DNA of 46,803 nucleotides, taken from positions 1 through 46,803 of the forward strand of contig CAYSJV010000003.1 in NCBI GenBank assembly GCA_964431435.1. The letters run 5' to 3'. Shown here in pieces: positions 637 to 39,041 of this stretch. The notes beneath the pieces are model-generated. The model saw only the letters and a program-made list of their open reading frames with translations. It ran no database searches and had not been told where the DNA came from. Each line of letters opens with the position of its first letter. Position 1 is the stretch's first letter. The position numbers and the translations under genes were made by a program. Source of the stretch: an uncultured Candidatus Poseidoniales archaeon (GTDB taxonomy: Archaea; Thermoplasmatota; Poseidoniia; Poseidoniales; Poseidoniaceae).

Positions 637-1254
637 CTAGAATTCAGATTCTAGTTCTTCCACTGCTTGTTCTAAATCAGCGTCATCGTATCCGCTTTCA
701 TTTCTTGTAGATTCTAATTGTTGTTCAGTAAATGGTTCAATACCTTCTTCCAACATGACCAACATCCTCCACCTTGGTGCCCAAGATAAATGCACATATA
801 TTGGACCAGGTACTACCAGAAAAATGAAGCCTATGTTTAATATCCATTCATAATTATCAAAAAAGGACATAGATAATTGTGCACTTATCAGTATCAATCC
901 GAGAAATGGTAATCTATACAAGAATTTGCGTGGCGATTGAATAGGTAATCTTTTTGTTATTTTTATTATAAATAATGATAGTTGTCCTAAGAGAGAAAGT
1001 AATAGCATTAGTATTGCCAAGAAAATACCCCATATACTTAACCAATCAGAGAAAATCCATTTTGCCTCGTAACCAATTGGCAAAAATAATCCTAATGAGA
1101 TTAAAAATGCATAAAATGCAGAAATAATTGCTGGATGAGATAACGAAGATGGTAGTTTTGAAAACCTCTGTGACAAACTACCTCCATAAAGTAATTCACG
1201 TTGCTCTATTGTCAACTCACTTAGACGGTTTTGGTACATATCAGCACCTTTCAT
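637..1254 (-). CDS. Hypothetical multi-pass membrane protein with acidic C-terminus
   Basis: 205-aa ORF with several long hydrophobic segments and an acidic tail (...DDADLEQAVEELESEF). I recognise no family. Confidence 0.55.
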   Translation of the reverse strand: MKGADMYQNRLSELTIEQRELLYGGSLSQRFSKLPSSLSHPAIISAFYAFLISLGLFLPIGYEAKWIFSDWLSIWGIFLAILMLLLSLLGQLSLFIIKITKRLPIQSPRKFLYRLPFLGLILISAQLSMSFFDNYEWILNIGFIFLVVPGPIYVHLSWAPRWRMLVMLEEGIEPFTEQQLESTRNESGYDDADLEQAVEELESEF

Positions 1255-1332
1255 GAATAAGGGGGTATATCGGTCACGGTTATGTGTTACTATGAAATTT
1301 TATCAATAAATAGAATATTTATACCAATCTAC

Positions 1333-2019
1333 TTATTCCAACTCATCATCCCCATCTGAGTCTAATCTTCCAGTTATTTTCCTTGCAAGAGCACCCAATT
1401 GTACATCGAATTGACCAGGTTCAACTGATCCCCACTCTCGATCAAGTAATTGTGATTCTTCATATTCTCTTTCTCTTGACTTTTCAAAAGGATCTGTAGT
1501 ACCGGGGCCTCTATTTTGCGCATCCCTCAATGCTAAAGCCATATTTATCAATTCAATTAATTCAGAACTATTGGTATTACTAACATCACTTTCATTCCAA
1601 TACCCTATTTTTTCTTCATCATTTGTATTTAACATCAAAGAGATACGAGGAGAATCATCGCTAGAAAGTTTCCACAGCCTACCTTCAAGAGGAAGTATAA
1701 TCCAAGTTTTATCCGACAAAAAAATAGCAACGCCACATTCTCCATGAGATTCTGTACCTTCAAACCATGGATGTGCAGTACCAACAGCAATCCACTGCTG
1801 TAACCCCCAAAATCTAAGTTTCATAGAATATACCATCATTAAAGATAATGAAAGTGTAAAACATATTGCAAACAGATAATGATATTTCATAACAAATAGA
1901 ACCGTCACTCCTGTTGCTACAAAAGTTAAAGCCAAATTCCCCCACAACTGCTTGATTTTTTGTTGACCCACAGTAAGTTTTGAAAAAGGAATGTAACCAT
2001 CGGGAGGGGGCACTGCCAT
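1333..2019 (-). CDS. Hypothetical membrane protein (2 TM helices plus soluble acidic C-terminal domain)
   Basis: The ORF is open to 2256. Upstream of Met80 (ATG at 2019) the translation is Cys-rich and odd-looking, and it overlaps the divergent gene starting at 2138. From MAVPPPDGYIPF... onward the composition looks normal. Alternative starts are at 2133 and 2109. Confidence 0.5.
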   Translation of the reverse strand: MAVPPPDGYIPFSKLTVGQQKIKQLWGNLALTFVATGVTVLFVMKYHYLFAICFTLSLSLMMVYSMKLRFWGLQQWIAVGTAHPWFEGTESHGECGVAIFLSDKTWIILPLEGRLWKLSSDDSPRISLMLNTNDEEKIGYWNESDVSNTNSSELIELINMALALRDAQNRGPGTTDPFEKSREREYEESQLLDREWGSVEPGQFDVQLGALARKITGRLDSDGDDELE

Positions 2020-2137
2020 GCTGTGGGATAAGGTGCATGCGTAGATATATTCTACTCTGGAAAAACAATTATTTCTCCAAAGTTGAAGGAATGAACAATA
2101 AATATCCATTGAATTCAATAGTGTAAACAGCATTTGA

Positions 2138-3493
2138 ATGTATAAGGTGAGTGACTTGGAGGATGGAGAGTCTAGCAAGTGGTGGGAGAATAATAGAAAA
2201 TGGGTCTCCTCTTCAAAAGATGTAGAACCACTTCCTGAAATGAGAACTCGCGTCAAAGCACCATCACAAGTCAGAGCACGTGCAACAGCGGCTCAGAATC
2301 GTTTTTCACAGGGTGAAAAGTTTGTACTAAATGCTAGAAGTGCGATATTGTTTGATTTACCGCAAACATCGGAATTATACAAATTAGCATCAAAACTTTA
2401 CGAAATGGGCCACCCACTTTTGGTTGTAAGTAGAATTCCTTCAACCCATCTAGAAGAACTTCACAATATACCTCAGGAAAATTGTAAATGGCTTACAGAA
2501 TCAGTTGAAAACAAAAATAGCCTTGGTTCTGCATTGGAACCACTAGTCAGATTGGTTGAGGATTTCATTAATACAAATGAACGAGCTGTGATTATGTTAG
2601 ATGGATTAGAATTTCTAGCAAGTGTAAATGGGTTTGTAAGAACATTAGATTTTGTAAGAGATATTGTTGATTATATAACTGAAGATGATGATCTATTGAT
2701 AATACCTACTGACATGCTAGCGTGGACTCAACAAGAAAGAACAAATATACTTCGGGAATTAGAATTAATTGACGTAAATACACTGAAACATTGGTTGGAG
2801 AATCCACAGGAAATTGAAGAACACCCATTCCATGCTCCTGACATAATAAAGGAAGAAATAATTAACAAAAAAATAAACAAGATTCTTTCTAAAGCCACAG
2901 AAAGTCTGAATGCGCAGAAGATTAATCTAGAGGTGGAAGGTTCTAGTGGAAACCTAAATATTGATTCTACAAATCAACTACATCTCGGTCAAATTGCAGA
3001 AGAATGGGCTGATGAAGTACGTATTGAAAATGAGCACATTGAAATTCAGCAAAATGAGATTGTGGATAAAATTGAAGATACTGATAAAGATTGGTCACCT
3101 ACCTTTGTCACTCCAGTACAAGAGAGTGAAATTACAGTTACAGAAGATATTTTAGTTCAGAAGAAAGTTTACGAAAAAGGTGGACCAAGAAGGCCGAATA
3201 TCATTAAATCAAAAAAGAAAGTTTTGCCTAAGCCTGCAATGGAAAAAGAGGCGCTCCCCAGAAAGAAACAATGGGAAGAGGCTGCAAATAAATCCACAGA
3301 AATATCTGGTGAAATAATCTCTGATAAAGAAAGTAAAAGGTTGATTAGACAAACAGGGTTAGCAAACATGTCAAAAAATAATACAGTAAAGACAATTGAG
3401 GAAGATTCTGATCCAATAAACCTTGTAATCAAAAAAATGTCATGGGATGCCGCTGCGGAACATGCAAAAAAAAGAGGGAAGAATGTCAGATAA
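2138..3493 (+). CDS. DUF835-domain protein with long Glu/Lys-rich C-terminal extension
   Basis: The core ...GHPLLVVSRIPSTHLEE...KWLTES...ERAVIMLDGLEFLASVNGFVRTLDFVRDIVDYI...LLIIPTD matches the archaeal DUF835 pattern (LDGLEYL...). The C-terminal ~200 aa are charged low complexity. The start could instead be the ATG at 2240. Confidence 0.7.
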   Translation: MYKVSDLEDGESSKWWENNRKWVSSSKDVEPLPEMRTRVKAPSQVRARATAAQNRFSQGEKFVLNARSAILFDLPQTSELYKLASKLYEMGHPLLVVSRIPSTHLEELHNIPQENCKWLTESVENKNSLGSALEPLVRLVEDFINTNERAVIMLDGLEFLASVNGFVRTLDFVRDIVDYITEDDDLLIIPTDMLAWTQQERTNILRELELIDVNTLKHWLENPQEIEEHPFHAPDIIKEEIINKKINKILSKATESLNAQKINLEVEGSSGNLNIDSTNQLHLGQIAEEWADEVRIENEHIEIQQNEIVDKIEDTDKDWSPTFVTPVQESEITVTEDILVQKKVYEKGGPRRPNIIKSKKKVLPKPAMEKEALPRKKQWEEAANKSTEISGEIISDKESKRLIRQTGLANMSKNNTVKTIEEDSDPINLVIKKMSWDAAAEHAKKRGKNVR

Positions 3494-3532
3494 CCCAGAA
3501 TTCACTCTAAAAAAACTCCATCATGAATCAAC

Positions 3533-5446
3533 TTGATTATTACCCTCGCCGATAATGGCACAGTCAAGCAAGGTGAGAATTTGAGTGAACGACGTCCATC
3601 AAAATTGACTGATGCCGTTACTAAAAGTCGAATTCTATTAGGCAGTTCTGCTCCCGAAGAAAAGGTTCAAAAAAAGAGTTTTGAATTTAGAAAAAAGAAA
3701 TCGATAGTGGAATTAACTAAAACTGAAAGAAGGCCCGTCTTCGAAAGAATTATCGAACCAATCTTAGACGATAATAAACCAAAAATTGAACGGGTCACAT
3801 TGAATGAAACTAGATTAAAGGACGAAAAATCAAATCGTTTTTTATTTAATGTATTAGGGGATAATCCGATTGAAGAAAGAGTTATTCTTAGCGATAAACC
3901 GATTTGGAGAGAGGTACTAGACGAGCATAGAAGTCAACTATCAAAAAGAACTGTTAGTGAACGTATACAACAAGAACAAATTTCGGATTATAGGTTAAGA
4001 GGAGAAAAAAATTGGCCAAATGAATTACCTTCAAACAAAAATTATACTTATTTGAATTGGATTATTTGTTCTGAAAATATCCAGGCAACCAAATTAACAG
4101 AGGAAATAATAGAACATGCAGGATACCGGTTTAATCCTGTACTAATTATGGGTCAACAATCAACGGGGAAAAGCCATCTTTCTTGGGCAATTGGACAAGC
4201 AATTCAACGTATACATGGAAAATCGTCAGTACGGCTAATTTCATGTTCAACATTCAATATAAGTGATACATCAAATAATGAATGGAGTGATACATTAACA
4301 CTTTCAAAAGCCCTAATCATCGAGAATCTAGATATGATTTTTGAAAATGATGAAGCGTGCTTAGAGTTATCAAAAATAGTAGAATGGGCATTGAATATTG
4401 GGGTTCAAGTCATACTAACATGTGAAGATATTTCTATTGATGATTTTCCAAAAGGCAAACTTCTGGATGTGCTTTCATCTGCAGTCAGATGCCAACTTAA
4501 TCAGTATTCAAAATTCAGTTTAATTACAATGCTACGATCTCTAGCTACAAAAAGAAATGTTTTGATAAGTGACAATGCAATAGAAGGTATTGTAGATACA
4601 AGTGATGGGAAATGGCCTTCCTGTTCTTCAATATTTGAATCAGTATGTATGGCACTTGAATCAGGTGCAAGTGTTGAATCGAAAAATGATGTCGAATCTA
4701 TAATAGAGGGAAGGCCTCATTCTCTTTATATTTCGTCTGATGAAGATAAGATAGCAAGTTATGATGATGATTTAGCACGTCAAATAGGTAAAGCAGCGAT
4801 TCAAAAAATAATAAGCAGTAAAGAACATTCTGAAGGGTATATCGAAGAGATGTTTGATGATATTGCCGAAGATGAATTATTCAAACGCCCCTTAGTCACT
4901 AACTCTGGAGAAGCTTGGTTTGGTGGAGAACTACCCTCAAAAATATCTTCAAAAGTTAAAGGGGATCTAGAATCATTATCTCAAGATGCCTTGGATACAA
5001 TGGTTGACATTGGTGTAAATTTTGAAGACCGAGCGTCAAAATTAAAAGAAATTGAAAATGAAATGATTGAAATTTCATATCTAATTGAAAATTCTGATAC
5101 AACAGAATTACTAGCCCTAGCAGATCGACTAATTCAATTAGATTCAGAATTATCACAACTAAAATTCAATTCAAGTTTTCCAGAGGAAAATGAGTTAGAT
5201 GAGTATATTCCTGATGGGGAATGGAATATTGATGAAGATGATGTGAGCGTTGAGGAACTACTTGACCTGAAAGAAGATGAACCTAAATTAAAACGTAAGG
5301 CAAAAAGAAGAAAGGCAAAAAGAAAGGCGAAAAAAGATTCTAAAAAAACAAAAAGAAACATACTGATACCTGTTGAAAATTCTGACTTACTTAAATCGGA
5401 AATAAAAGTTATGAAAACATTAGTTCCTACAGCAGAAGAGGAGTAG
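3533..5446 (+). CDS. DnaA/Hda-like AAA+ domain protein (degenerate), acidic coiled-coil region and poly-basic patch
   Basis: Walker A reads NPVLIMGQQSTGKSHL (nt 4151-4174). The Walker B-like stretch ALIIENLD (nt 4310-4333) is followed by ...LELSKIVEWALNIGVQVILTCE, resembling DnaA domain III. The first 205 codons contain no ATG, so the start must be TTG at 3533 or another non-ATG codon. Confidence 0.65.
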   Translation: MIITLADNGTVKQGENLSERRPSKLTDAVTKSRILLGSSAPEEKVQKKSFEFRKKKSIVELTKTERRPVFERIIEPILDDNKPKIERVTLNETRLKDEKSNRFLFNVLGDNPIEERVILSDKPIWREVLDEHRSQLSKRTVSERIQQEQISDYRLRGEKNWPNELPSNKNYTYLNWIICSENIQATKLTEEIIEHAGYRFNPVLIMGQQSTGKSHLSWAIGQAIQRIHGKSSVRLISCSTFNISDTSNNEWSDTLTLSKALIIENLDMIFENDEACLELSKIVEWALNIGVQVILTCEDISIDDFPKGKLLDVLSSAVRCQLNQYSKFSLITMLRSLATKRNVLISDNAIEGIVDTSDGKWPSCSSIFESVCMALESGASVESKNDVESIIEGRPHSLYISSDEDKIASYDDDLARQIGKAAIQKIISSKEHSEGYIEEMFDDIAEDELFKRPLVTNSGEAWFGGELPSKISSKVKGDLESLSQDALDTMVDIGVNFEDRASKLKEIENEMIEISYLIENSDTTELLALADRLIQLDSELSQLKFNSSFPEENELDEYIPDGEWNIDEDDVSVEELLDLKEDEPKLKRKAKRRKAKRKAKKDSKKTKRNILIPVENSDLLKSEIKVMKTLVPTAEEE

Positions 5447-5452
5447 TTGCTG

Positions 5453-5956
5453 ATGAAAAATAATCTCAAAAAAGAGATACAAGACAATCAGTTAGAAGAA
5501 TGGTGGTCTGACGGCTTAAATTTCACATGTATTCCTAGTTGTGGGAGATGTTGTAATGAACCAGATGGACTGGTATTTCTCTCCATAAAAGATGCAGAAA
5601 ATCTATCTAAATTTCACAACATGGAAGTAAATGAGTGGATTGAAAGGGATTGTAAGAGGTATAGAGATGGTAGAATTGTGTTGAAGAGTAATCATTCGGA
5701 TGGAATATGCATTTACCTGTCGAATGACATGAGTTGTAATGTTTATGAATCTAAACCCACTCAATGTTCTGCATTCCCGTGGTGGAAAGAGAATTTAAAA
5801 AACGAATATACTTGGGAAAAAACAAAGAAAATGTGCCCAGGAATAGATTTCGAAAACGCACCAATTGTCACCTCTGAGAATATTGCGAAATGGGTAAATG
5901 CAGATATCAAATCAACAAAAGGATTTAGAAAATATATTGAAAAAAAAGATAGATAA
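5453..5956 (+). CDS. YkgJ / CxxCxxCC-family putative Fe-S or Zn cluster protein
   Basis: The motifs CIPSCGRCCNEPDG...CIYL...CNVYESKPTQCSAFPWW fit the UPF0153/YkgJ cysteine pattern. The ATG at 5453 is preceded by GAGGAG at 5438-5443. Confidence 0.7.
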   Translation: MKNNLKKEIQDNQLEEWWSDGLNFTCIPSCGRCCNEPDGLVFLSIKDAENLSKFHNMEVNEWIERDCKRYRDGRIVLKSNHSDGICIYLSNDMSCNVYESKPTQCSAFPWWKENLKNEYTWEKTKKMCPGIDFENAPIVTSENIAKWVNADIKSTKGFRKYIEKKDR

Positions 5957-6014
5957 ATAAGGTCGTTGCACTTATACCATTAATGTATCTGGGGCAATAG
6001 TAGGTGGACTTCAT

Positions 6015-7181
6015 ATGGACGAATCTGATGAAGAATTATTCAAAATTCATCGCTCACATTTGAACACGGGATTACGTGGAATTCCTGTGGGAACATGTAG
6101 AACAAGTTTTGTTGATCCTATGAAGGGAGTGCATTACGTAGGCTACCCTGTATCTGATTTGGCCAATTTAGATCCTGAAGATATAGTATATCTTTTATTT
6201 GAAAAAAGGCTGCCTAATCTACAAGAGTCTCGGGATTTCAGAAAAGATTTAGCACACCGTGCCACTCTTCCTGGTGGTGCTCTTAGAGTTCTAGAATCGT
6301 TGACTGCCGGAACCGGACATCCGATGGATTGGCTATCGATTGGAATACAGGCTCTAGGGATTGCAGAAACTACAGGTTCACCTCGAGATGATGGGTTAAA
6401 CTTGATTGCAAGAATGCCTGAATTAATGGCTACAATCTTTAGATTAAGAGGCGGAAGAAGTTTACCAAAAGCCAGTAATCCCGAATTAGGTATGGTAGAG
6501 AATTTTGTGCAAATGCTAGGAATGGAGGATACTGATGTTCTGAATATGACCAAAGTATTGAGAGTCTTTTTGATATTACATATGGACCATGGGGGTGGTA
6601 ATTTGTCTACATTTGCGGGTAAAGCTGTTGCAAGTGGTAGAGCCAGTATTTATTCATCTATTTCATCTGCAATGAATGCATTATCTGGACCATTACATGG
6701 ACGAGCAAATCAATCCTGTCTAGAATTTGTACAAAGAATTGAAAATTCGGACCAGGAGTCAATTGAAAAGTTTGTCAGAGCAGAATTAGATGCAGGTAGA
6801 CCAATCTATGGATTTGGGCATGCAGTTCTCCGTGCTGAAGATCCAAGAGCAACCATTCAATTTGGTCTAGGAGAAACGGTTTGTCCTAATGATTCAAATT
6901 ATAAAGTTATCAAAACATTAAGAAAAGTTGTTCCTAGTATATTGAAAGAAAATCCCAAAATAAGCAATCCTAATGCAAATGTGGATATTGCTTCAGGAAC
7001 ACTACTTCATGCAGTAGGGTTTAGAAAACCAGAATATTATACAACATTTTTTGGATGGGCGAGAGTAGTAGGTATATGTGCTCAGATTATAGATGAACGA
7101 AACGCTCGAGGAGGTCGTGGAACACCAATATATCGTCCGAAATTTATCGCAGATAATCCTGAAGTTAGAAGATTAGAATAA
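6015..7181 (+). CDS. gltA: Citrate synthase (or 2-methylcitrate synthase)
   Basis: Signature motifs LILHMDHGGGNLST, SGPLHGRANQ and GFGHAVLRAEDPRA, with a length typical of the small type of citrate synthase. Confidence 0.9.
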   Translation: MDESDEELFKIHRSHLNTGLRGIPVGTCRTSFVDPMKGVHYVGYPVSDLANLDPEDIVYLLFEKRLPNLQESRDFRKDLAHRATLPGGALRVLESLTAGTGHPMDWLSIGIQALGIAETTGSPRDDGLNLIARMPELMATIFRLRGGRSLPKASNPELGMVENFVQMLGMEDTDVLNMTKVLRVFLILHMDHGGGNLSTFAGKAVASGRASIYSSISSAMNALSGPLHGRANQSCLEFVQRIENSDQESIEKFVRAELDAGRPIYGFGHAVLRAEDPRATIQFGLGETVCPNDSNYKVIKTLRKVVPSILKENPKISNPNANVDIASGTLLHAVGFRKPEYYTTFFGWARVVGICAQIIDERNARGGRGTPIYRPKFIADNPEVRRLE

Positions 7182-31307: not shown

Positions 31308-34300
31308 TTAATTCAGGCCTTTCTCAGTTAGATATTGTTGTCCGTAAACCTGCCATTGCTCCATTGTCCATCCTGGAGGAATGCCTCCTGGTGGGATTGG
31401 TGGGGCGCCGCCTGGTACTGCAGCAGGTGCCACAGGAGCAGCTGTGGGTTGTATAGGTGCCTGGAATATATCCGAAGCGCCACCATACATTGAATTGGCA
31501 ACTGGGTCCATGGCAGGTACCTGCGCACCCCAGTCTACTAGACCGTCATTTCTCCCACTTCTTCTGCTAGTGACAAAAGCCACTACAATTACTAACACTA
31601 AGATTCCGCCTAATGCTGCAAGAACTAGCAACAGAGTATTATCTGAAAACATACCATCTGAAGAGCCACTAACATCTGCACCTGGGCATGTTTTCTCGTC
31701 CATTGCACAGTTAACTTCCTCTATGTTCTTAGAAACCAAATCAATTTCTGATTGTTTTTCTGCTTTTGCATCACTACCGGCTTCGAGAGCATTTAATTCG
31801 GATTCCAATAGAATCAAACTTGCTGCTAATTCAGTCATCTTTTGTTGTAACTGCTCATCAGTCATCTCATCAAGTGGAATATCCTGTGGTGGGTATTCTG
31901 TAATCTCCCATTTGTAATATGAATCCATCTTCCTATCTGTTCCATCTGAATCTATTCCATCCAATGACACCTTCAACTCATAATTGTATAGTAGAATCGG
32001 AGCATCAGCAAATACAACCGTAATTGACCAAGGTCCTTGACCGTCTGCGAGTGTGCTTGGCATGTTATACAAACAAATTCCAGTAGTCATATCACACATT
32101 TGCCAATCTGCAGCGAGATCTTGCAAACCAATATCGCTATGCAATGTAAAAGTCACGGTAGGTGCAAGACCTGCATACATATCTTCCCATTCCATTAGAA
32201 CATCACCTGTTTCTGAAGCTGATGTTACCAATACAAGTGGTAACTCTGAAAATACACTAACTGTAAATGAAAATACATCTGTAGCATCATGCCGATCTCT
32301 AGTAGTTACACTAACAATGTGATCTCCTGCTGTCTCAAAGTCAAGTGTTAGTTCTCCTGTCACTGGGTTCCAATCCACAGCACTTGGCTCATCAGCCATA
32401 ACTGAACTGTAAAACCTAGCCTCAGAATCATCATCATCTACATCTGTTATTCTTGAACCGAATTCAAAATCACATAAATCTGCATTCGAACAAAATTGTA
32501 TAGGCTCACCTAACATTGTTTCCAAATTCTCAATTCCTGTTAAATCAAGTCTTGGCGCATCGTTGACATTATTCACACTAACTGTAAGTATAGTATCACT
32601 CTCTTGTATACCATCACTTGCCCTCAAAGTAATCATTGCCAAACCCACATCATCATCATTAACCGGTTCAATATTGAGAGTAAAGCCACTCAATGTTGCC
32701 GCAACAATTGGGCTCTCATCTGATGTTCCAACACCAGGTATAGTTTCTATACCAACTACTTCTAAAGTTAATCCTGAAATATCATCTACCACATTTCCTT
32801 GCTGGTCGGTATCACTAAGATATTGCATTAATGGAAGTGAAAGCCCCATTCCGCCTTCATTGAGAGATTGAGTAGGTATTGCATCCCAACGTGGCATTCC
32901 ATTCTCAATAACCCAGAAGTAAAGTGTATCAGTAGTTATTTTGTCACCATCTGAAACTGAAATTGATACCGATTTTGCAATGGGTATACCATTAGAACCC
33001 AAAGGAATCTGTGTAAATCTGACTTCCACATTTTGAGTATCAGGATGCCATGAGAAACAAGCATCTTCAGAATTTGCAGCGCATTCGGGCATATTTGATG
33101 TTACATCTAATTGCGAGAGGGGGGTTTCAGGATCGGAAATATGATCGACCATACTAACCATCTCATTTGTATCAACCCTTACAGACTCATATGGATCTGC
33201 AGTAACTACTGGTGCAGCATTTAGAAGATTAAATGCACTTTCTTCGATTTGCCAATCACTGATTTGTCCTCTTGAATCAGCAAATGATAATGCAATATCA
33301 TAGGTACCTGCTGATGCATCAATAGGTGGAGTTACAGAGAACTCATATCTTTCATTACTGGTTCCTTCCCCGAAAAGTACGTCTCCATCAGTTACCCAAT
33401 CCTCTGACCAAGCATTTTCTCCGTGCTTTGAAATTTTCAGAGTAGGTGTAACTGTTGACATAGTATCAATTCCATCATTAGGCTGTATCTTTGCCTCAAC
33501 CATGCGGCTTGAACCACGTTCTACATCAGGGCTACCTACGACAAATGGGCTCTTTGATTCAGGTACCATATCATGTAATATCTGCACCATTTGGTTACTA
33601 TTCATTGAAGGTGGTCCTTCAACTCTGACAACAAACTGTACATCCCATGCATCTGATGGAAGTGAAGTTGTATCAAAAGATGCCTGAGCAGATTTGCTTG
33701 CACCAACTACCAAGTTAGTGATTGCAGCAGATCCAAACTCAACTTCAGATAATCCTTGAATACGGTAGAATTTAAGATATCCTCCGTCCGAGTAATCCTC
33801 AATACCATTGTTTGTAATCGATGCATCAATAGTGATTACATCTCCATTCACATATCCTGGCAAACCTGCACTGTTGCTATTGCTAACACTTACTGGTCCG
33901 TCTAAACTTACATCTAACAATGAACCCATAGAGGAATCGGTTGCTGTCAATGTATGCTCATTACTTGCACCCGTACTTGGTGCACCAACCATCAATGCTG
34001 CTACTGCCAATGCATTAGCTGCGCCACCACTAACCAAACTTGCTGGAACTGACCAAGAATAACTTGTCCAACTTGATGAACTTAAACTCACAGATTCGAA
34101 TGAGTTACCAGTACCTCCTGTTGCGGATTTGTATGTTCCACTGCTTGTTAACCATGATTTCCAGCAGTGGTGTCCTTTAGAACCATCAGCATAAACGTAT
34201 GAATTACAAGTATCTTCAGTTAAAGCTGCATATAGGTAAACGTTTGACGGAGGAGTTCCTGAACCAATATATTTGGCTGCAACAGAAATATCGATATAAT

Positions 34301-34814
34301 TTCCATTTGCATTAACTTGTGATATCAAACCGTATTTTCCAACTGTAGATGCGCTCATTCCGCCACCACTGTTGAACATTGAATCATAGCAAGTGTTACT
34401 TCCACATCCACCGGCATTCTTGTCTAAACGATCTCCCCAATTGCTATCTGGTGCGCCACTAGAGCTCCATGGCCAATTGTAAACATTCACATTACCAGCC
34501 CTAGCAGTGTCGGTATCACCATAAGATACTGACTGATATGCAATATACACCATTCTATCTGGCCAATCTGTTTTTAATTTGGAAAGTGCTGGTGAACCAT
34601 ATTGGTAGCAAAATCCACAGTTATCTGAAGTGATATACTGTGCAAAAACCACGTGACCGGGGTCACTTGCACCCATTGTTTGTGGAATCTCTTCAAGTTC
34701 CACTTTGTCTTCTTCAGGAGATTCCTGAATTGCGCTCATGATTGAGCCAAATGCTGAAACAGACATCAAAAACACAATCATTACCGAAACATACGCTCTG
34801 CTGTTCATATTCAT
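31308..34814 (-). CDS. Giant type-I membrane surface protein: signal peptide, CGFC thioredoxin-like module, cadherin/Ig-like repeats, coiled coil, C-terminal TM anchor, Pro-rich cytoplasmic tail
   Basis: An N-terminal signal peptide (VMIVFLMSVSAFGS) is followed by CGFC at nt 34608-34619. VSVNNVNDAPRLD is typical of cadherin-like domains. The TM helix LLLVLAALGGILVLVIVVAFV is followed by RRSGRN and a PxxP-rich tail. Confidence 0.7.
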   Translation of the reverse strand: MNMNSRAYVSVMIVFLMSVSAFGSIMSAIQESPEEDKVELEEIPQTMGASDPGHVVFAQYITSDNCGFCYQYGSPALSKLKTDWPDRMVYIAYQSVSYGDTDTARAGNVNVYNWPWSSSGAPDSNWGDRLDKNAGGCGSNTCYDSMFNSGGGMSASTVGKYGLISQVNANGNYIDISVAAKYIGSGTPPSNVYLYAALTEDTCNSYVYADGSKGHHCWKSWLTSSGTYKSATGGTGNSFESVSLSSSSWTSYSWSVPASLVSGGAANALAVAALMVGAPSTGASNEHTLTATDSSMGSLLDVSLDGPVSVSNSNSAGLPGYVNGDVITIDASITNNGIEDYSDGGYLKFYRIQGLSEVEFGSAAITNLVVGASKSAQASFDTTSLPSDAWDVQFVVRVEGPPSMNSNQMVQILHDMVPESKSPFVVGSPDVERGSSRMVEAKIQPNDGIDTMSTVTPTLKISKHGENAWSEDWVTDGDVLFGEGTSNERYEFSVTPPIDASAGTYDIALSFADSRGQISDWQIEESAFNLLNAAPVVTADPYESVRVDTNEMVSMVDHISDPETPLSQLDVTSNMPECAANSEDACFSWHPDTQNVEVRFTQIPLGSNGIPIAKSVSISVSDGDKITTDTLYFWVIENGMPRWDAIPTQSLNEGGMGLSLPLMQYLSDTDQQGNVVDDISGLTLEVVGIETIPGVGTSDESPIVAATLSGFTLNIEPVNDDDVGLAMITLRASDGIQESDTILTVSVNNVNDAPRLDLTGIENLETMLGEPIQFCSNADLCDFEFGSRITDVDDDDSEARFYSSVMADEPSAVDWNPVTGELTLDFETAGDHIVSVTTRDRHDATDVFSFTVSVFSELPLVLVTSASETGDVLMEWEDMYAGLAPTVTFTLHSDIGLQDLAADWQMCDMTTGICLYNMPSTLADGQGPWSITVVFADAPILLYNYELKVSLDGIDSDGTDRKMDSYYKWEITEYPPQDIPLDEMTDEQLQQKMTELAASLILLESELNALEAGSDAKAEKQSEIDLVSKNIEEVNCAMDEKTCPGADVSGSSDGMFSDNTLLLVLAALGGILVLVIVVAFVTSRRSGRNDGLVDWGAQVPAMDPVANSMYGGASDIFQAPIQPTAAPVAPAAVPGGAPPIPPGGIPPGWTMEQWQVYGQQYLTEKGLN

Positions 34815-34944: not shown

Positions 34945-35748
34945 ATGGACAAACCAAGTGAGAATATGCTTGTATCCTTGAGGGAAGAAAATGGAAACAT
35001 ATACTTGGTAAAAATTGTTGACACTAGCATCAAAGTCAAAGGACTTGGTGTTTTTAATCCAAAACGAATTTTGGAGAATGTTGCATTTGGAGAAGAAGTA
35101 ATGATTGGAAGCAAATGTATCACTGCTCTACCTTGTAGAACTCCCGAATTAGCCAAAGGCATGGAAAGAAGAGCACAAATCATTCAACCAAAAGATGCAG
35201 GTACTTTGATTGCGAAGATGGGAATTGGATCATCTTCCAAAGTACTTGAGGCGGGGTTGGGTTCCGCAGCCCTAGCCATGCAAATTTCGAGTGTTTTAAG
35301 TGAAAGGGGAATACATGTAACTGTGGAAGAAAAGGAGGTGCATTCAGAAGTTGGGTTAAGAAATATGGCTAAACAAAGAAGCGTAGCGACCAATCCTCCA
35401 CAACACCACCATATAACTGGAAAAATAGAAGATTCGGTAAAGGAAATCACAAATATTTCTAATGTTTTTGATGCAATTATTCTTGACATACCAGACCATC
35501 CAATTGCGATTAAGGCTGTTGCTAAATTACTTGAAATTGGAGGTAGATTAGCCTGTTATTGCCCGGTTTCTAGCCAAGTAGAACTAGCATGGGATGCTTG
35601 TGAAGAAGAAGGACTAGAAATTGAATGGGCTGGAGAATTAATTGAACGCACTTGGGGTAGAGCCTCAAAAGGTGGTATTCGCCCAGTGAATGGACCATTT
35701 GGACATACTGCGTTTCTTCTTATAGCTACAAAATTTAAATCAGATTAA
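34945..35748 (+). CDS. trmI: tRNA (adenine-N1)-methyltransferase TrmI (Gcd14 family)
   Basis: RRAQIIQPKDAGTLIAKMGIGSSSKVLEAGLGSAALAMQIS (SAM motif I) and DAIILDIPDH...GGRLACYCP fit the m1A57/58 methyltransferase architecture. Confidence 0.85.
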   Translation: MDKPSENMLVSLREENGNIYLVKIVDTSIKVKGLGVFNPKRILENVAFGEEVMIGSKCITALPCRTPELAKGMERRAQIIQPKDAGTLIAKMGIGSSSKVLEAGLGSAALAMQISSVLSERGIHVTVEEKEVHSEVGLRNMAKQRSVATNPPQHHHITGKIEDSVKEITNISNVFDAIILDIPDHPIAIKAVAKLLEIGGRLACYCPVSSQVELAWDACEEEGLEIEWAGELIERTWGRASKGGIRPVNGPFGHTAFLLIATKFKSD

Positions 35749-38700
35749 TCGTAATCGACAACTCTGACTGTTGTGTCACATTTTGGACACTTAAATTTGA
35801 AGGGTGGAACTCTACCTGAAGGTACCCTTAATTTTGCATCACAACTTGGGCAATTAACTGAACCATCTTCCAGTAACTGTGCTTCATTTGAAATATCAGG
35901 TATAACTAATTCAGGGAAAGAAGGTAATTCTGCTTCATCTAAGGGGGGTAAATCAACAGCAGTATCTGACTCAACATCTATCCTTTTACGATTCTTTCTA
36001 GATTTCACAATCCAAACAACAAGCAGTAAACTAAGAGCCCAACCTCCAATTAAAGCAAGTTGACTATTTTGATTGTTAACTTGGAACAAAAAGAAATCCA
36101 CCCCATGGATTGGAGCAGGTTTGCCATCTATCGTAACTTTAAAAGTTGAAGATGAATCTGTAGTTGATGCTGCACCCACGTTTGAATTTGCTTTGATATT
36201 CAAAGTTGCAATACCATGATTATCAGATCTTGGTATTAATTCTAGTGTATATTCTTGAACACCTCCCACTTCTAAAGAATAGTGATTTGGATGTGTTGAA
36301 TTATCGATTCTAATCCAATCATAATCCATGATTCCAAATTCGTCGCCGACCACGTATATGGTTCCTGAAACAGGTTGATTCAGTAGGTTTGTTACAGTAA
36401 CCGAAACTTTGCTTGTACCTGAATAACTCAGATTCACACTGCCATAATCCATTTCAATCAAAACCGCATCTTCACCTGCCGAAAATGTAGGTTCTACGAC
36501 ATAACTTGATGTTTTGCTAAATGAGGTCTCAATTTGACTTTGGGATCTAATTACAAAAGTCAGATTATAATTTCCAAATGCAGTATCTTCAGATACATCA
36601 CATGAGTATGGAATTCCTTGACTACTGCTTGATGCTGATAAGATTATTTCTGATTGCATTTCGCACGTTAGTTCACTCGCAGTCAGCAAGAATACATCCA
36701 CTGCATTCCCATCATTACTAAGGTATAATGTACCAGATATATTTCCTCCGGGCAAGGTAGAATTAACATTTGGATCAACAAGTAAAGATGCTGAAATAAC
36801 TTGAGATGCTGCTGTAAATTCATACGATGATGAAACATCTGGGTTTATGACACTCCTCGCAGTAATAGTTATGCTAGTATCCAAATTATTGGAAGACACT
36901 CTTCTAAGTGACACTGTTACGTCACCTTGTTCTCCAGCAGCCAAAGTCAGGATAGATGGATTCACAGATGATTCAAAACCATCTGCTCCCTGTAGAGTAA
37001 ATTGGAATGAGTCATACCTATTCCCCATGTTTGAAACAGAAATTACGATTTCTGCAGATTGTGAATTTCCAACTACCAACCAATCAATGCCACTTGTCAC
37101 TGCAACACTTGTCCGTTCCATTATTTGTAAATCGATAGAAAGATTTGTTTTCACACTAGAATCATTGCCACTAGTCGCAATAATCTCAATCGGATAAGTG
37201 TCTGCAATACAAGCAAGACTTGTTGATAACACCACAGAAAAATTTACTTCTTGCTGTACTGAAACGTTAGTCAATAATTGTGTCTCGTCATCCAATAATG
37301 CTGACACACAGGCAGGGATATTGTCAAATCCAATAGTAAATCCTTGATTCACAGTACCAAGGTTGACTAAACTCAAATTAAGTTGACCAAAATCTCCAGC
37401 ATCTATCTGAATCCTTTGATCATCAGGTCCGTTTAATCCCATCTCATATCTTTCGTTAACAACTAATATGAAAGTAGTATTTGCACCAGCACCTGCAGAA
37501 TTCTTACTGACCACATTCACAGTCACATTATGAGGTCCCACCAAATCAGTCATTGAAGCAACAGCAAAAGTGATTGAAAAACTATCTGCCGAGTTCCTGT
37601 CGATTGTCAACCATCCAGGTGGTGCGGATATGCTAACACCACTAGGGGCATCAACAAAGAATTGTAACTCATCAGATTCGCTTCCATTATTTCTAACGGT
37701 AAATAATACAGACACATCAGAACCTGGTGTCACATATATCTCCTCAGATGGTGCGACAATACTCAACTGCCATGAAACACCTACCACAATAGTAAACGAA
37801 GAAGTCAACTCTATTCCTGCATCTAGATTCAATGCTACCAATTCAAAAGTACAAGAATCATTGAGGTGAGCGCCTGGAAACGGTGTTGCTTCCATTAATA
37901 TTGTTTCATTACCTCCAACCTCTAACTCTGATCCAAATAATGTCAAAAGATTATGAGTGCATGGCCCTGAACTTGAGCCAACTGAATAACTGTACGTATC
38001 AGATATGGTGCCTATATTTGTGACACTTATATTGAGAATCCCTGTTTTACTTGGTAGCCAAACATAATCAGATGGAGTGACATCATCAAAAGCCAAAATA
38101 TGTTCTGCTGTAACATTCACCACTAGAATAGATGAAATTGAAAAATTACCATTAGTCGAGGCCACAAATAGGCGAACTCCTTGATAAGATGGTGTCTCAT
38201 TAGCAGGAACTGTGATTCTAAGCGTACGTATAACTGTAGAACTGCTCGTAATGTTGGAAATGACATCATTCACCCAATATATATTCCATCCAAGGGGGAT
38301 TGATTTGCCCATTGAAGGAGATGTACTATTGTTTCCACCACTAGAATTCCCCCCTCCAGATTGATTTGATGTCCAATTCAACCACCATTGTGAGAGGTTT
38401 GGTTCATCCTCAACATCCAGTAAGTACGTATCATCTACATTACCTAAATTCGTAATTGGTAAATCCACATCCACAGTTGTTCCTGGTGCAACATCAACCA
38501 ATCCCAAATTGCCTGCACCTGAAACATTAATGGAAGGTAAATGTAGTGGTGCTACTGATAAGAATAAGGTAATATTAGTACTAACATTACTGCCTACCCA
38601 AGATACAGTAATTGTCGCCTCACTATTATGGGAAAGAAGTCCCGAACTATCCAACCTTACTACAAGTGTAGTGTCTCTGGTAAAAGTAGGTAATACACTG

Positions 38701-39041
38701 TTCAAACGAGTATCTGATCTCGTGATATTCCAAGTACTTGCAACTCCAGCCATATTTACCTCTACATCAAAGTCATGAGTCATGGATGAATCATTATTGT
38801 GAACTGAAAGTGTAACGTTTGTAGATACTCCCGGTGATAAAATTAAATGCTGAGGTGTGAGAGTCAATCCGATTGAGTCAGACGCCGTTGCAGTCCCACT
38901 AATAAGAGGTAATGTGGAGGCAAATAACAAAATAGTAACCAAAGTGATACAACGCTTACGCTTGTTGCTGAATTTAGATTCCATATGTTGCAATGGCTCT
39001 TTCCACTCAGTCAAAATAGTTCGTTCCACGGCTCCCGCCAT
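35745..39041 (-). CDS. Giant sequon-rich surface protein with ~8 CARDB/NEW3-like beta-sandwich repeats, C-terminal TM anchor and cytoplasmic Zn-ribbon
   Basis: A signal peptide (KRKRCITLVTILLFASTLPLISGTATA) is followed by a repeated motif (V/I)xNxGxxxDx(F/Y): ITNLGNVDDTYLL, VTNIGTISDTYSY, VRNNGSESDELQF, VNLGTVNQGFTI, VSNMGNRYDSFQF, LSNDGNAVDVFLL and others. There are many NxS/T sequons. The TM helix is followed by KSRKNRKR and a tail with CPSC-x17-CPKC. The start may be Met20 (38984). Confidence 0.7.
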   Translation of the reverse strand: MAGAVERTILTEWKEPLQHMESKFSNKRKRCITLVTILLFASTLPLISGTATASDSIGLTLTPQHLILSPGVSTNVTLSVHNNDSSMTHDFDVEVNMAGVASTWNITRSDTRLNSVLPTFTRDTTLVVRLDSSGLLSHNSEATITVSWVGSNVSTNITLFLSVAPLHLPSINVSGAGNLGLVDVAPGTTVDVDLPITNLGNVDDTYLLDVEDEPNLSQWWLNWTSNQSGGGNSSGGNNSTSPSMGKSIPLGWNIYWVNDVISNITSSSTVIRTLRITVPANETPSYQGVRLFVASTNGNFSISSILVVNVTAEHILAFDDVTPSDYVWLPSKTGILNISVTNIGTISDTYSYSVGSSSGPCTHNLLTLFGSELEVGGNETILMEATPFPGAHLNDSCTFELVALNLDAGIELTSSFTIVVGVSWQLSIVAPSEEIYVTPGSDVSVLFTVRNNGSESDELQFFVDAPSGVSISAPPGWLTIDRNSADSFSITFAVASMTDLVGPHNVTVNVVSKNSAGAGANTTFILVVNERYEMGLNGPDDQRIQIDAGDFGQLNLSLVNLGTVNQGFTIGFDNIPACVSALLDDETQLLTNVSVQQEVNFSVVLSTSLACIADTYPIEIIATSGNDSSVKTNLSIDLQIMERTSVAVTSGIDWLVVGNSQSAEIVISVSNMGNRYDSFQFTLQGADGFESSVNPSILTLAAGEQGDVTVSLRRVSSNNLDTSITITARSVINPDVSSSYEFTAASQVISASLLVDPNVNSTLPGGNISGTLYLSNDGNAVDVFLLTASELTCEMQSEIILSASSSSQGIPYSCDVSEDTAFGNYNLTFVIRSQSQIETSFSKTSSYVVEPTFSAGEDAVLIEMDYGSVNLSYSGTSKVSVTVTNLLNQPVSGTIYVVGDEFGIMDYDWIRIDNSTHPNHYSLEVGGVQEYTLELIPRSDNHGIATLNIKANSNVGAASTTDSSSTFKVTIDGKPAPIHGVDFFLFQVNNQNSQLALIGGWALSLLLVVWIVKSRKNRKRIDVESDTAVDLPPLDEAELPSFPELVIPDISNEAQLLEDGSVNCPSCDAKLRVPSGRVPPFKFKCPKCDTTVRVVDYD

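Follow-up and report, generated by a model that had tools for sequence, protein, structure and literature searches.

A DUF835 protein and a degenerate DnaA-type AAA+ protein encoded side by side across the archaeal order Poseidoniales

The DNA analyzed here is a 46,803-nt stretch from an uncultured Candidatus Poseidoniales archaeon (contig CAYSJV010000003.1, positions 1–46,803; 'the window' below) that carries three adjacent genes on its plus strand: g1, encoding a DUF835 protein; g2, encoding an AAA+ protein related to domain III of DnaA and g3, encoding a YkgJ-type cysteine-cluster protein. The g1 and g2 genes are found together across the order Poseidoniales, and we hold with moderate confidence that their products form one functional unit, a degenerate P-loop pair that is made together and works as a binding switch or scaffold, not as an enzyme. 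Literature searches turned up no published description of the g2 family or of the DUF835/DnaA/YkgJ combination, in line with the original prediction for this locus, which knew of no described system with these three, and a survey of archaeal protein families with 199 Poseidoniales-associated families does not discuss them (PMC9258230). The domains themselves are known; what is new is that DUF835 is paired with DnaA and that a whole order of archaea has kept a DnaA module whose catalytic residues have decayed.

The Poseidoniales, or marine group II archaea, rank among the most abundant archaea of surface seawater and are uncultured, so that lineage-specific core genes are the main handle on their cell biology. 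Archaea start replication with Orc1/Cdc6, and AAA+ modules of the DnaA type count as bacterial. The retention of a DnaA-derived module in apparently every member of an archaeal order, alongside the loss of residues and domains by which DnaA function is defined, would surprise a specialist, and as yet answers no open question. Its present value lies in a well-defined family with diagnostic motifs and in a testable interaction hypothesis. The module would also be a clear case in nature of an AAA+ ATPase that becomes a pseudoenzyme scaffold, paired with a second pseudo-NTPase of the inactivated KaiC-like (iKaiC) type.

The AAA+ module of g2 derives from DnaA domain III

Pfam, NCBIfam, matches to PDB sequences, Foldseek and hhalign agree that g2 is DnaA/Hda-like and not an Orc1/Cdc6 protein, as had been predicted. 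Pfam Bac_DnaA (PF00308) matches residues 168–298 with 46.5 bits (cut-off 23), and alignment of 41 g2-family representatives to 12 DnaA sequences with hhalign gives a probability of 99.9% (E = 1.4e-32). Sequence matches in the PDB are exclusively to DnaA, the best Foldseek matches to the g2 model are DnaA domain III (2z4r, 8bv3 and 8btg) and Hda (3bos, with 3sc3 also high), and no Orc1/Cdc6 or Cdc6 winged-helix model is matched in Pfam or NCBIfam at E ≤ 1. The best NCBIfam match, DnaA (TIGR00362), reaches 56.4 bits against an equivalog cut-off of 343.9; Hda (TIGR03420) scores 18.7 against 194.8, DnaC 13.1 against 357 and IstB 15.1 against 200. Like DnaA domain III (2z4r, 8bv3, 1l8q/2hcb), the g2 family has an AAA+ base plus lid, and it shares with DnaA the NP(L/I)xIxG strand before Walker A, the GxGK(S/T)HL and hhhhDD forms of Walker A and Walker B and the QhhhTS sensor-I strand. 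The module was probably gained horizontally, from a bacterial DnaA, by the Poseidoniales ancestor.

Beyond this module g2 is unlike DnaA. It lacks domains I, II and IV (no DnaA_N or Bac_DnaA_C match in Pfam at E ≤ 1), the profile alignment ends at DnaA residue 350 and shows the region of the initiator-specific motif (ISM) as six residues shorter than in DnaA. In the AlphaFold2 (AF2) model this region forms two short helices (residues 243–246 and 250–257), with predicted local distance difference test scores (pLDDT) of ~62–77 as means of 10-residue blocks. Its host is archaeal, its gene does not lie beside an origin or dnaN, and the protein adds N-terminal motifs of its own, charged tails and a coiled coil in its C-terminal part.

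Several residues of the AAA+ cycle vary within the family. Lysine occupies the Walker A lysine column in 26 of the 41 representatives and is lost in the other 15 (R in nine, C in five, T in one); the abundant lineages of the Poseidoniaceae type have R, C or T there. Walker B reads D-D in ~90% of the family, and the E-N form is confined to the clade of the window. The box VII arginine finger of DnaA is R285 in Escherichia coli and R230 in Aquifex. A residue count in the Aquifex sequence and the hhalign profile alignment both identify it with the arginine of the 'SRF' sequence, and the corresponding g2 column is hydrophobic (V, L, I, A, M or F) in 41/41. An 'ETR' position retained in L024-type proteins was considered for the finger and discarded, since the profile alignment places the finger at 'SRF'. 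The sensor-II arginine, finally, is retained in 24 representatives and missing in 17. Because no set of catalytic residues is conserved family-wide, catalysis does not appear to be what selection preserves in g2. In the lineage of the window, with E-N in Walker B and neither an arginine finger nor a sensor-II arginine, the protein is probably hydrolysis-impaired, as originally proposed from its sequence.

Positions that are conserved in g2 include W125 (in 41/41 representatives), W161-P162, W176, E181-N182, N201-P202, G212, H215-L216, W251, R335, W361, G378 and D386; family-specific Trp, Pro and Asn positions surround the nucleotide pocket. The C-terminal half of the protein, which returns only generic coiled-coil matches from the PDB and Pfam, contains a helical hairpin with conserved L504, L526, D531 and L540, followed by a linear motif that recurs in many divergent members; DDYxPPE is a further conserved motif of the family. 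The long charged tails attributed earlier to g1 and g2 are real by net-charge counts. In g2, residues 394–575 have a net charge of −31 and the 35-residue stretch 576–610 is 51% Lys plus Arg, which leaves the basic tract of the window protein flanked by this acidic region and by an acidic tail.

By the features that define them at the sequence level, g2 falls outside the DnaA, Hda, DnaC and Orc1/Cdc6 families. Hda and DnaC are DnaA-clade modules without domain IV that serve as regulators or loaders, and Hda and the DnaC/DnaI/IstB proteins offer a precedent for a DnaA-type module that acts as a protein-binding regulator or loader and not as an initiator. These proteins depend on an arginine finger, an ISM or both, and their length is ~230–250 aa, whereas the g2 proteins span 580–840 aa, have no finger and have other partners.

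Gene 1 encodes an iKaiC protein with charged tails

The profile hidden Markov model matches proposed for the three proteins (DUF835, Bac_DnaA and CxxCxxCC) all exceed their Pfam gathering scores. That of g1 to DUF835 (PF05763) amounts to 73.8 bits (cut-off 33.1) over profile positions 6–136 of 136, and its orthologues score 54–55 bits. DUF835 has been described as an iKaiC output domain of archaeal sensors and response regulators, part of a proposed KaiC-centered archaeal signaling network (Galperin et al. 2018, PMC5847659), in agreement with the earlier description of a degenerate KaiC-like module of archaeal sensor proteins. The Walker A pattern GxxxxGK[ST] is absent both from g1 and from the consensus of 24 g1 representatives. 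Residues 68–225 of the AF2 model form a RecA/KaiC-like α/β domain (pLDDT ~85) that Foldseek matches to KaiC (root mean square deviation 3.5–4.5 Å), FlaH/ArlH (4yds) and PH0284 (2dr3), and also to AAA proteins such as Vps4, with E-values of 1e-3 to 1e-2 in all cases. With iKaiC/DUF835 proteins and ArlH, g1 shares the RecA/KaiC-like fold, in its own case without a P-loop. Unlike iKaiC response regulators, g1 has no fused REC, PAS or membrane sensor domain and carries long charged tails, and it is paired with a DnaA-type AAA+ protein, a combination that we did not find in the literature.

Directly after the DUF835 domain, H229, P230 and F231 are invariant in one g1 alignment, and the 24-representative consensus reads '.dHP.c'. 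The tails that follow are opposite in charge (net −13 at residues 231–345 and +11 at 346–451). The second contains a basic motif, with the family form GPRxxxRIKRxKK, in which a Pro and one Arg are at least 80% conserved among the 24 representatives and which coincides with the densest Lys/Arg window of g1 in most lineages. Most lineages also have an extra N-terminal domain of ~120 aa on g1, weakly DUF2226-like (E = 0.005), that the clade of the window lacks. In one locus (L002, 5121–7056) the g1 orthologue is spread over two overlapping frames, probably through a frameshift in the assembly, since an identical g2 follows an intact 670-aa g1 in L003.

The gene pair is retained across the order

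An exhaustive profile search of 1.84 billion representative sequences with the g2 family returned 33 proteins at E ≤ 1e-30, below which ordinary DnaA and tandem-DnaA proteins follow without a break. Word-indexed searches found only nine clusters for g2, six for g1 and 14 for g3, and in comparison with the exhaustive search these counts much understate the diversity of the families; one clade of the nine g2 clusters lies at 63–100% identity and another at ~28%. A scan for the g2 family over one genome per GTDB species gave 26 archaeal loci and six weak bacterial matches, and a scan of metagenomes that started from seven g2 sequences of a divergent subgroup added 80 loci. The archaeal loci are labeled Poseidoniales, Thalassarchaeaceae, marine group II (MGII) or generic Euryarchaeota/Methanobacteriota in 24 of 26 cases. 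The remaining two, L026 and L028, are listed as 'Deltaproteobacteria bacterium AH-558-G13' and 'Yoonia sp.', bear a complete Poseidoniales gene block and probably reached public assemblies by mis-binning or as contaminants. The split of the order into its two families dates back roughly a billion years (PMC10877094).

The clade of the window (63–100% identity, metagenome contigs only) seems to be unrepresented among species representatives: none in GTDB r232 holds a close relative (>30% identity) of the window g2, though both search patterns were present. The window citrate synthase is 69–77% identical (75–77% at full length) to those of Thalassarchaeaceae-type loci and 64–67% to those of L024–L030; the window g3 is nevertheless co-directional with g2, as in L024–L030.

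A g1 orthologue lies upstream of g2 in every locus that is long enough to tell, and the g1-g2-g3 series is present in all 26 genome loci and 80 metagenome loci, as far as the contigs extend. The three genes are therefore found together in every related locus, as the proposal of a three-gene module led one to expect. Gene order in the surrounding block is aminotransferase, membrane protein, two-helix membrane protein, g1, g2, g3, citrate synthase and GDPD. On its own, however, this synteny is not specific to a module: the adjacency of g1, g2 and g3 is weak evidence because the entire surrounding block is conserved order-wide.

The junctions are more informative. The g1 and g2 genes share a 4-nt ATGA overlap in 61 of 91 loci, and in the rest, the window clade excepted, their spacing is −11 to +2 nt; an ATGA overlap joins g2 and g3 in 76 loci. 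In the window itself, the three same-strand open reading frames (ORFs), the gaps of 39 and 6 nt between them and the position of a GAGGAG sequence (5438–5443) are as originally described. Co-translation had been proposed from this sequence, which codes for the final two Glu of g2 and ends 9 nt before the g3 ATG at 5453, like a Shine–Dalgarno element. The overlaps in most relatives support co-translation, but the Shine–Dalgarno argument is weak. Matches of at least 5 nt precede only 6 of the 37 window genes, against ~8% of random 25-mers, which suggests from the sequence that translation starts mostly independently of such elements in this organism. Acidic C-termini (...PEE, ...GEEE) are also common in the g2 family, including some relatives in which g3 is convergent. 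Given the scarcity of such matches and this common acidic C-terminus, coding alone accounts for GAGGAG. The TTG taken as the start of g2 is the earliest possible in-frame start, and an in-frame TTG for g3 is found at 5447, ahead of its ATG.

The fastest-evolving genes of the block are g1, g2 and the gene for the two-helix membrane protein at 1333–2019, with mean pairwise identities of 0.36, 0.41 and 0.35, compared with 0.62 for g3, 0.74 for citrate synthase and 0.85 for the aminotransferase. With three neighbor genes controlled, the partial correlation of pairwise distances is r = 0.60 for g1-g2, 0.37 for g2-g3 and 0.04 for g1-g3, and the distances of the membrane protein give partial r of 0.27–0.30 with g1 and g2 (permutation p = 0.001 for every partial r ≥ 0.27).

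Gene 3 and the adjoining membrane protein

The g3 protein scores above the Pfam threshold for the YkgJ/CxxCxxCC family (PF03692, 34.4 bits; cut-off 23), and an orthologue carries the NCBI label 'YkgJ family cysteine cluster protein'. Eight cysteines (C26, C30, C33, C34, C86, C95, C105 and C128) are invariant in 87 orthologues. Two features are unlike a typical YkgJ protein: the first cluster is spaced Cx3Cx2CC and not Cx2Cx2CC, and the gene is embedded in the g1-g2 operon.

On the other side, the 1333–2019 protein adjoins g1 in all loci. It has an invariant H-P-(W/F) motif, and searches of Pfam and the PDB found no family for it, only coiled-coil noise. It is possibly a fourth component, or the anchor, of the set.

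A proposed non-catalytic pair and its alternatives

In the arrangement that we favor, g1 and g2 would be co-translated and would join through their P-loop-fold cores, their oppositely charged tails or both. Where its pocket is intact, g2 could bind nucleotide without turning it over, as a conformational cue and outside any oligomer-dependent hydrolysis cycle. The linear motifs and coiled coil (PIWxxVLD, DDYxPPE, GEWNID...LL and the acidic C-terminus) would recruit other proteins, candidates being the 1333–2019 membrane protein and, in most lineages, the translationally coupled g3, which might bring in a metal or redox input. The g1 protein would contribute its basic motif and its iKaiC domain, elsewhere an output or adaptor module of the KaiC-centered network. 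We conclude that the working mode would be like that of non-catalytic AAA+ assembly subunits or of KaiC-like adaptors such as ArlH.

Several observations weigh against a non-catalytic g1-g2 unit. Because AF2 models g2 poorly as a whole (mean pLDDT 49, with 60–82 in the AAA+ core), the motif assignments lean on the profile alignment. In the window clade, g2 has a TTG start, lies 39–41 nt from g1 and ends 5–6 nt before g3. Partial Mantel tests are liberal when sequences share a phylogeny, and for this reason we take the g1-g2 rate co-variation as suggestive. The ~12-kb housekeeping block from aminotransferase to TatC, including an MFS gene, keeps its gene arrangement throughout the order, in almost all loci. 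In a Thalassarchaeaceae group (L002, L005–L007, L009–L016, L018–L020, L022, L023 and L025), g3 lies convergently on the opposite strand, its stop usually 1–18 nt from that of g2. Finally, both the GKS of Walker A and the DD of Walker B are intact in Thalassarchaeaceae-type and L024–L030-type proteins, and 17 of the 41 representatives have an Arg two residues past the finger column. Residual or non-canonical ATPase activity may persist in some lineages, and is conceivable because they keep GKS, DD and the sensor-II Arg and because of this +2 Arg. An active ATP-driven machine would build on just these residues: g2 would hydrolyze ATP through non-canonical means (the +2 Arg, or a residue supplied in trans by g1) to remodel a substrate; g1 would serve it as a regulatory ring of the KaiC kind, as ArlH serves ArlI, in keeping with the structural match of g1 to FlaH/ArlH. 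We consider this unlikely, since no catalytic set is shared by the family, the Walker A lysine being replaced in Poseidoniaceae-type proteins and Walker B reading E-N in the window clade. The conserved block and the behavior of g3 fit a different account, in which three unrelated genes are neighbors merely through a block frozen since the Poseidoniales ancestor. The order of the aminotransferase, the two membrane proteins, citrate synthase, GDPD, MFS and TatC is kept in almost all loci, g3 has switched strand in one group and evolves ~2-fold more slowly than g1 and g2, and g1-g3 distances do not co-vary. Of the trio originally proposed as one module, we keep the link between g1 and g2, but g3 would be a looser, lineage-dependent accessory of that pair on account of its strand flip and much slower evolution. 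As an explanation of g1 and g2 themselves, a frozen block is quite unlikely: ATGA overlaps occur at both junctions in most loci, the g1-g2 rate co-variation exceeds that of the neighbors, both proteins are apparently order-restricted, fast-evolving and degenerate in their P-loops, and both genes are present wherever a contig covers both positions.

We likewise assign a low probability to a regulator of replication or the cell cycle of the Hda/DnaC type, in which g2 would act on Orc1/Cdc6, MCM, PCNA or the bacterial-type gyrase under the regulation of g1. Such a role would suit an AAA+ module that is nearest to DnaA and Hda, the precedent of domain-IV-less regulators and loaders and the basic tracts in both g1 and g2, and MGII has acquired bacterial DNA-handling genes such as gyrase and encodes Orc1/Cdc6 (PMC3914693). 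Against it, g2 has no arginine finger and a shortened ISM, both of which Hda and DnaC need, and many g2 lineages have lost the Walker A lysine. No clamp-binding or PIP-like motif was noticed in g2 on reading the alignments, of which no dedicated motif scan was run, and neither replication genes nor repeats or origin-like features were found in the window. In particular, searches for repeat families and inverted repeats in 1200–6100 gave only chance-like short matches and no DnaA-box-like repeats, and an origin of replication at the locus was dropped. With domain IV missing, the ISM shortened and no repeats or origin-like features nearby, the association with nucleic acid suggested in the original prediction finds no support. 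A true bacterial-type DnaA initiator at work in an archaeon is highly improbable and is effectively refuted by the missing DNA-binding domain. The top matches of g2 are indeed Bac_DnaA and TIGR00362, but the latter scores 56 bits against 344, domains I and IV and the finger are absent, the ISM is shortened, no DnaA-box-like repeats lie nearby and MGII has Orc1/Cdc6 (PMC3914693). In a bolder extension of the non-catalytic pair, the Poseidoniales ancestor would have wired a captured bacterial DnaA module into KaiC-type signaling, as a lineage-specific, membrane-tethered machine of four parts (the 1333–2019 membrane protein, the iKaiC protein g1, the pseudo-DnaA g2 and g3 as a Cys-cluster redox sensor) that couples an environmental or redox signal to replication or division. 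We think this rather improbable; if true, it would control the cell cycle in a new way, without counterpart in bacteria or other archaea. A defensive or viral origin of the set was also considered and dropped: PADLOC defense models gave a marginal AAA match for g2 (E = 0.0045) and none for g1 or g3, and viral contigs yielded no homologue.

Genomic context and further observations

The window is ordinary archaeal chromosome with a G+C content of ~37% and includes genes for TFB, PheRS-alpha, AspRS, LonB, PurA, citrate synthase and TatC and two tRNAs. The neighbors of the trio are the aminotransferase, membrane protein and citrate synthase genes; neither dnaN nor an origin is among them. Features of the locus are collected in Table 1.

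Table 1. Features of the g1-g2-g3 locus and the adjoining membrane protein gene (window coordinates)
Feature	Position (nt)	Strand	Description
Two-helix membrane protein gene	1333–2019	−	228 aa, two predicted transmembrane helices, acidic tail; divergent from g1
g1	2138–3493	+	ORF, 451 aa, ATG start; DUF835/inactivated KaiC-like, charged tails
Strand-loop at expected RecA-type P-loop site	2339–2389	+	g1 residues 68–84; SAILFDLPQTSELYKLA, without GxxxxGK[ST]
DUF835 domain	2369–2761	+	g1 residues 78–208; Pfam PF05763
Walker-B-like VIMLDGLEFL	2585–2617	+	g1; read from sequence
E-(E/G/D)-H-P-(F/L) motif	2816–2830	+	g1; directly after DUF835 domain
Basic motif GPRxPxxIKxKKK	3179–3235	+	g1; disordered C-terminal part
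g1-g2 spacer	3494–3532	+	39 nt; peculiar to the clade of the window
g2	3533–5446	+	637 aa; DnaA-domain-III-type AAA+ with novel N- and C-terminal regions, without DNA-binding domain
Signature PIWREVLDxxR	3899–3931	+	g2; precedes AAA+ module
AAA+ base and lid	4007–4711	+	g2 residues 159–393, aligned to DnaA 110–350 (domain III)
Walker A GQQSTGKS	4151–4174	+	intact in window g2
Walker B LIIEN	4313–4327	+	E-N in place of D-D of the family and DnaA
Box VII equivalent KGKLLDVLS	4451–4477	+	V313 in DnaA arginine-finger column
Sensor-II region GKWPS	4607–4621	+	W361 conserved; P362 in place of sensor-II Arg
Helical hairpin/coiled coil	4982–5167	+	g2 residues 484–545; AF2 pLDDT ~80
Linear motif PxGEWNIDxxxVxxxELL	5210–5263	+	in many divergent g2-family members
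Lys/Arg tract	5285–5356	+	KLKRKAKRRKAKRKAKKDSKKTKR, 24 residues; similar basic patches in other lineages
C-terminal tail TLVPTAEEE	5417–5443	+	g2; final E-E from GAGGAG at 5438–5443
g3	5453–5956	+	167 aa, ATG start; YkgJ-family CxxCxxCC protein

Two groups of proteins met in the g2 searches have layouts of their own. Six library proteins of ~585–690 aa (P0049, P0050, P0052, P0053, P0054 and P0057) carry two Bac_DnaA ATPase domains in tandem, an architecture that we do not recognize. In the bacterial proteins of L031–L036 (Hydrogenedentes, Nitrospirales), a DnaA-like AAA+ base (GEKGTGKSHLLWA, LLVDE) has no recognizable lid on reading of the alignment; after it come what seems to be a long region of coiled-coil-like character and an acidic tail, a layout that loosely parallels that of g2.

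Elsewhere in the window, two long ORFs lie on the minus strand: one of 1168 aa (31308–34814) with zero Pfam matches and one of 1098 aa (35745–39041) with weak fn3-like Pfam matches only. In locus L037, upstream of where the window starts, a CorA gene (4288–5340) lies on the minus strand between the genes for a pseudouridine synthase and a riboflavin kinase; a corA inversion in a conserved cluster near this gene has been proposed as a basis of brackish adaptation in Poseidoniales (PMC10877094).

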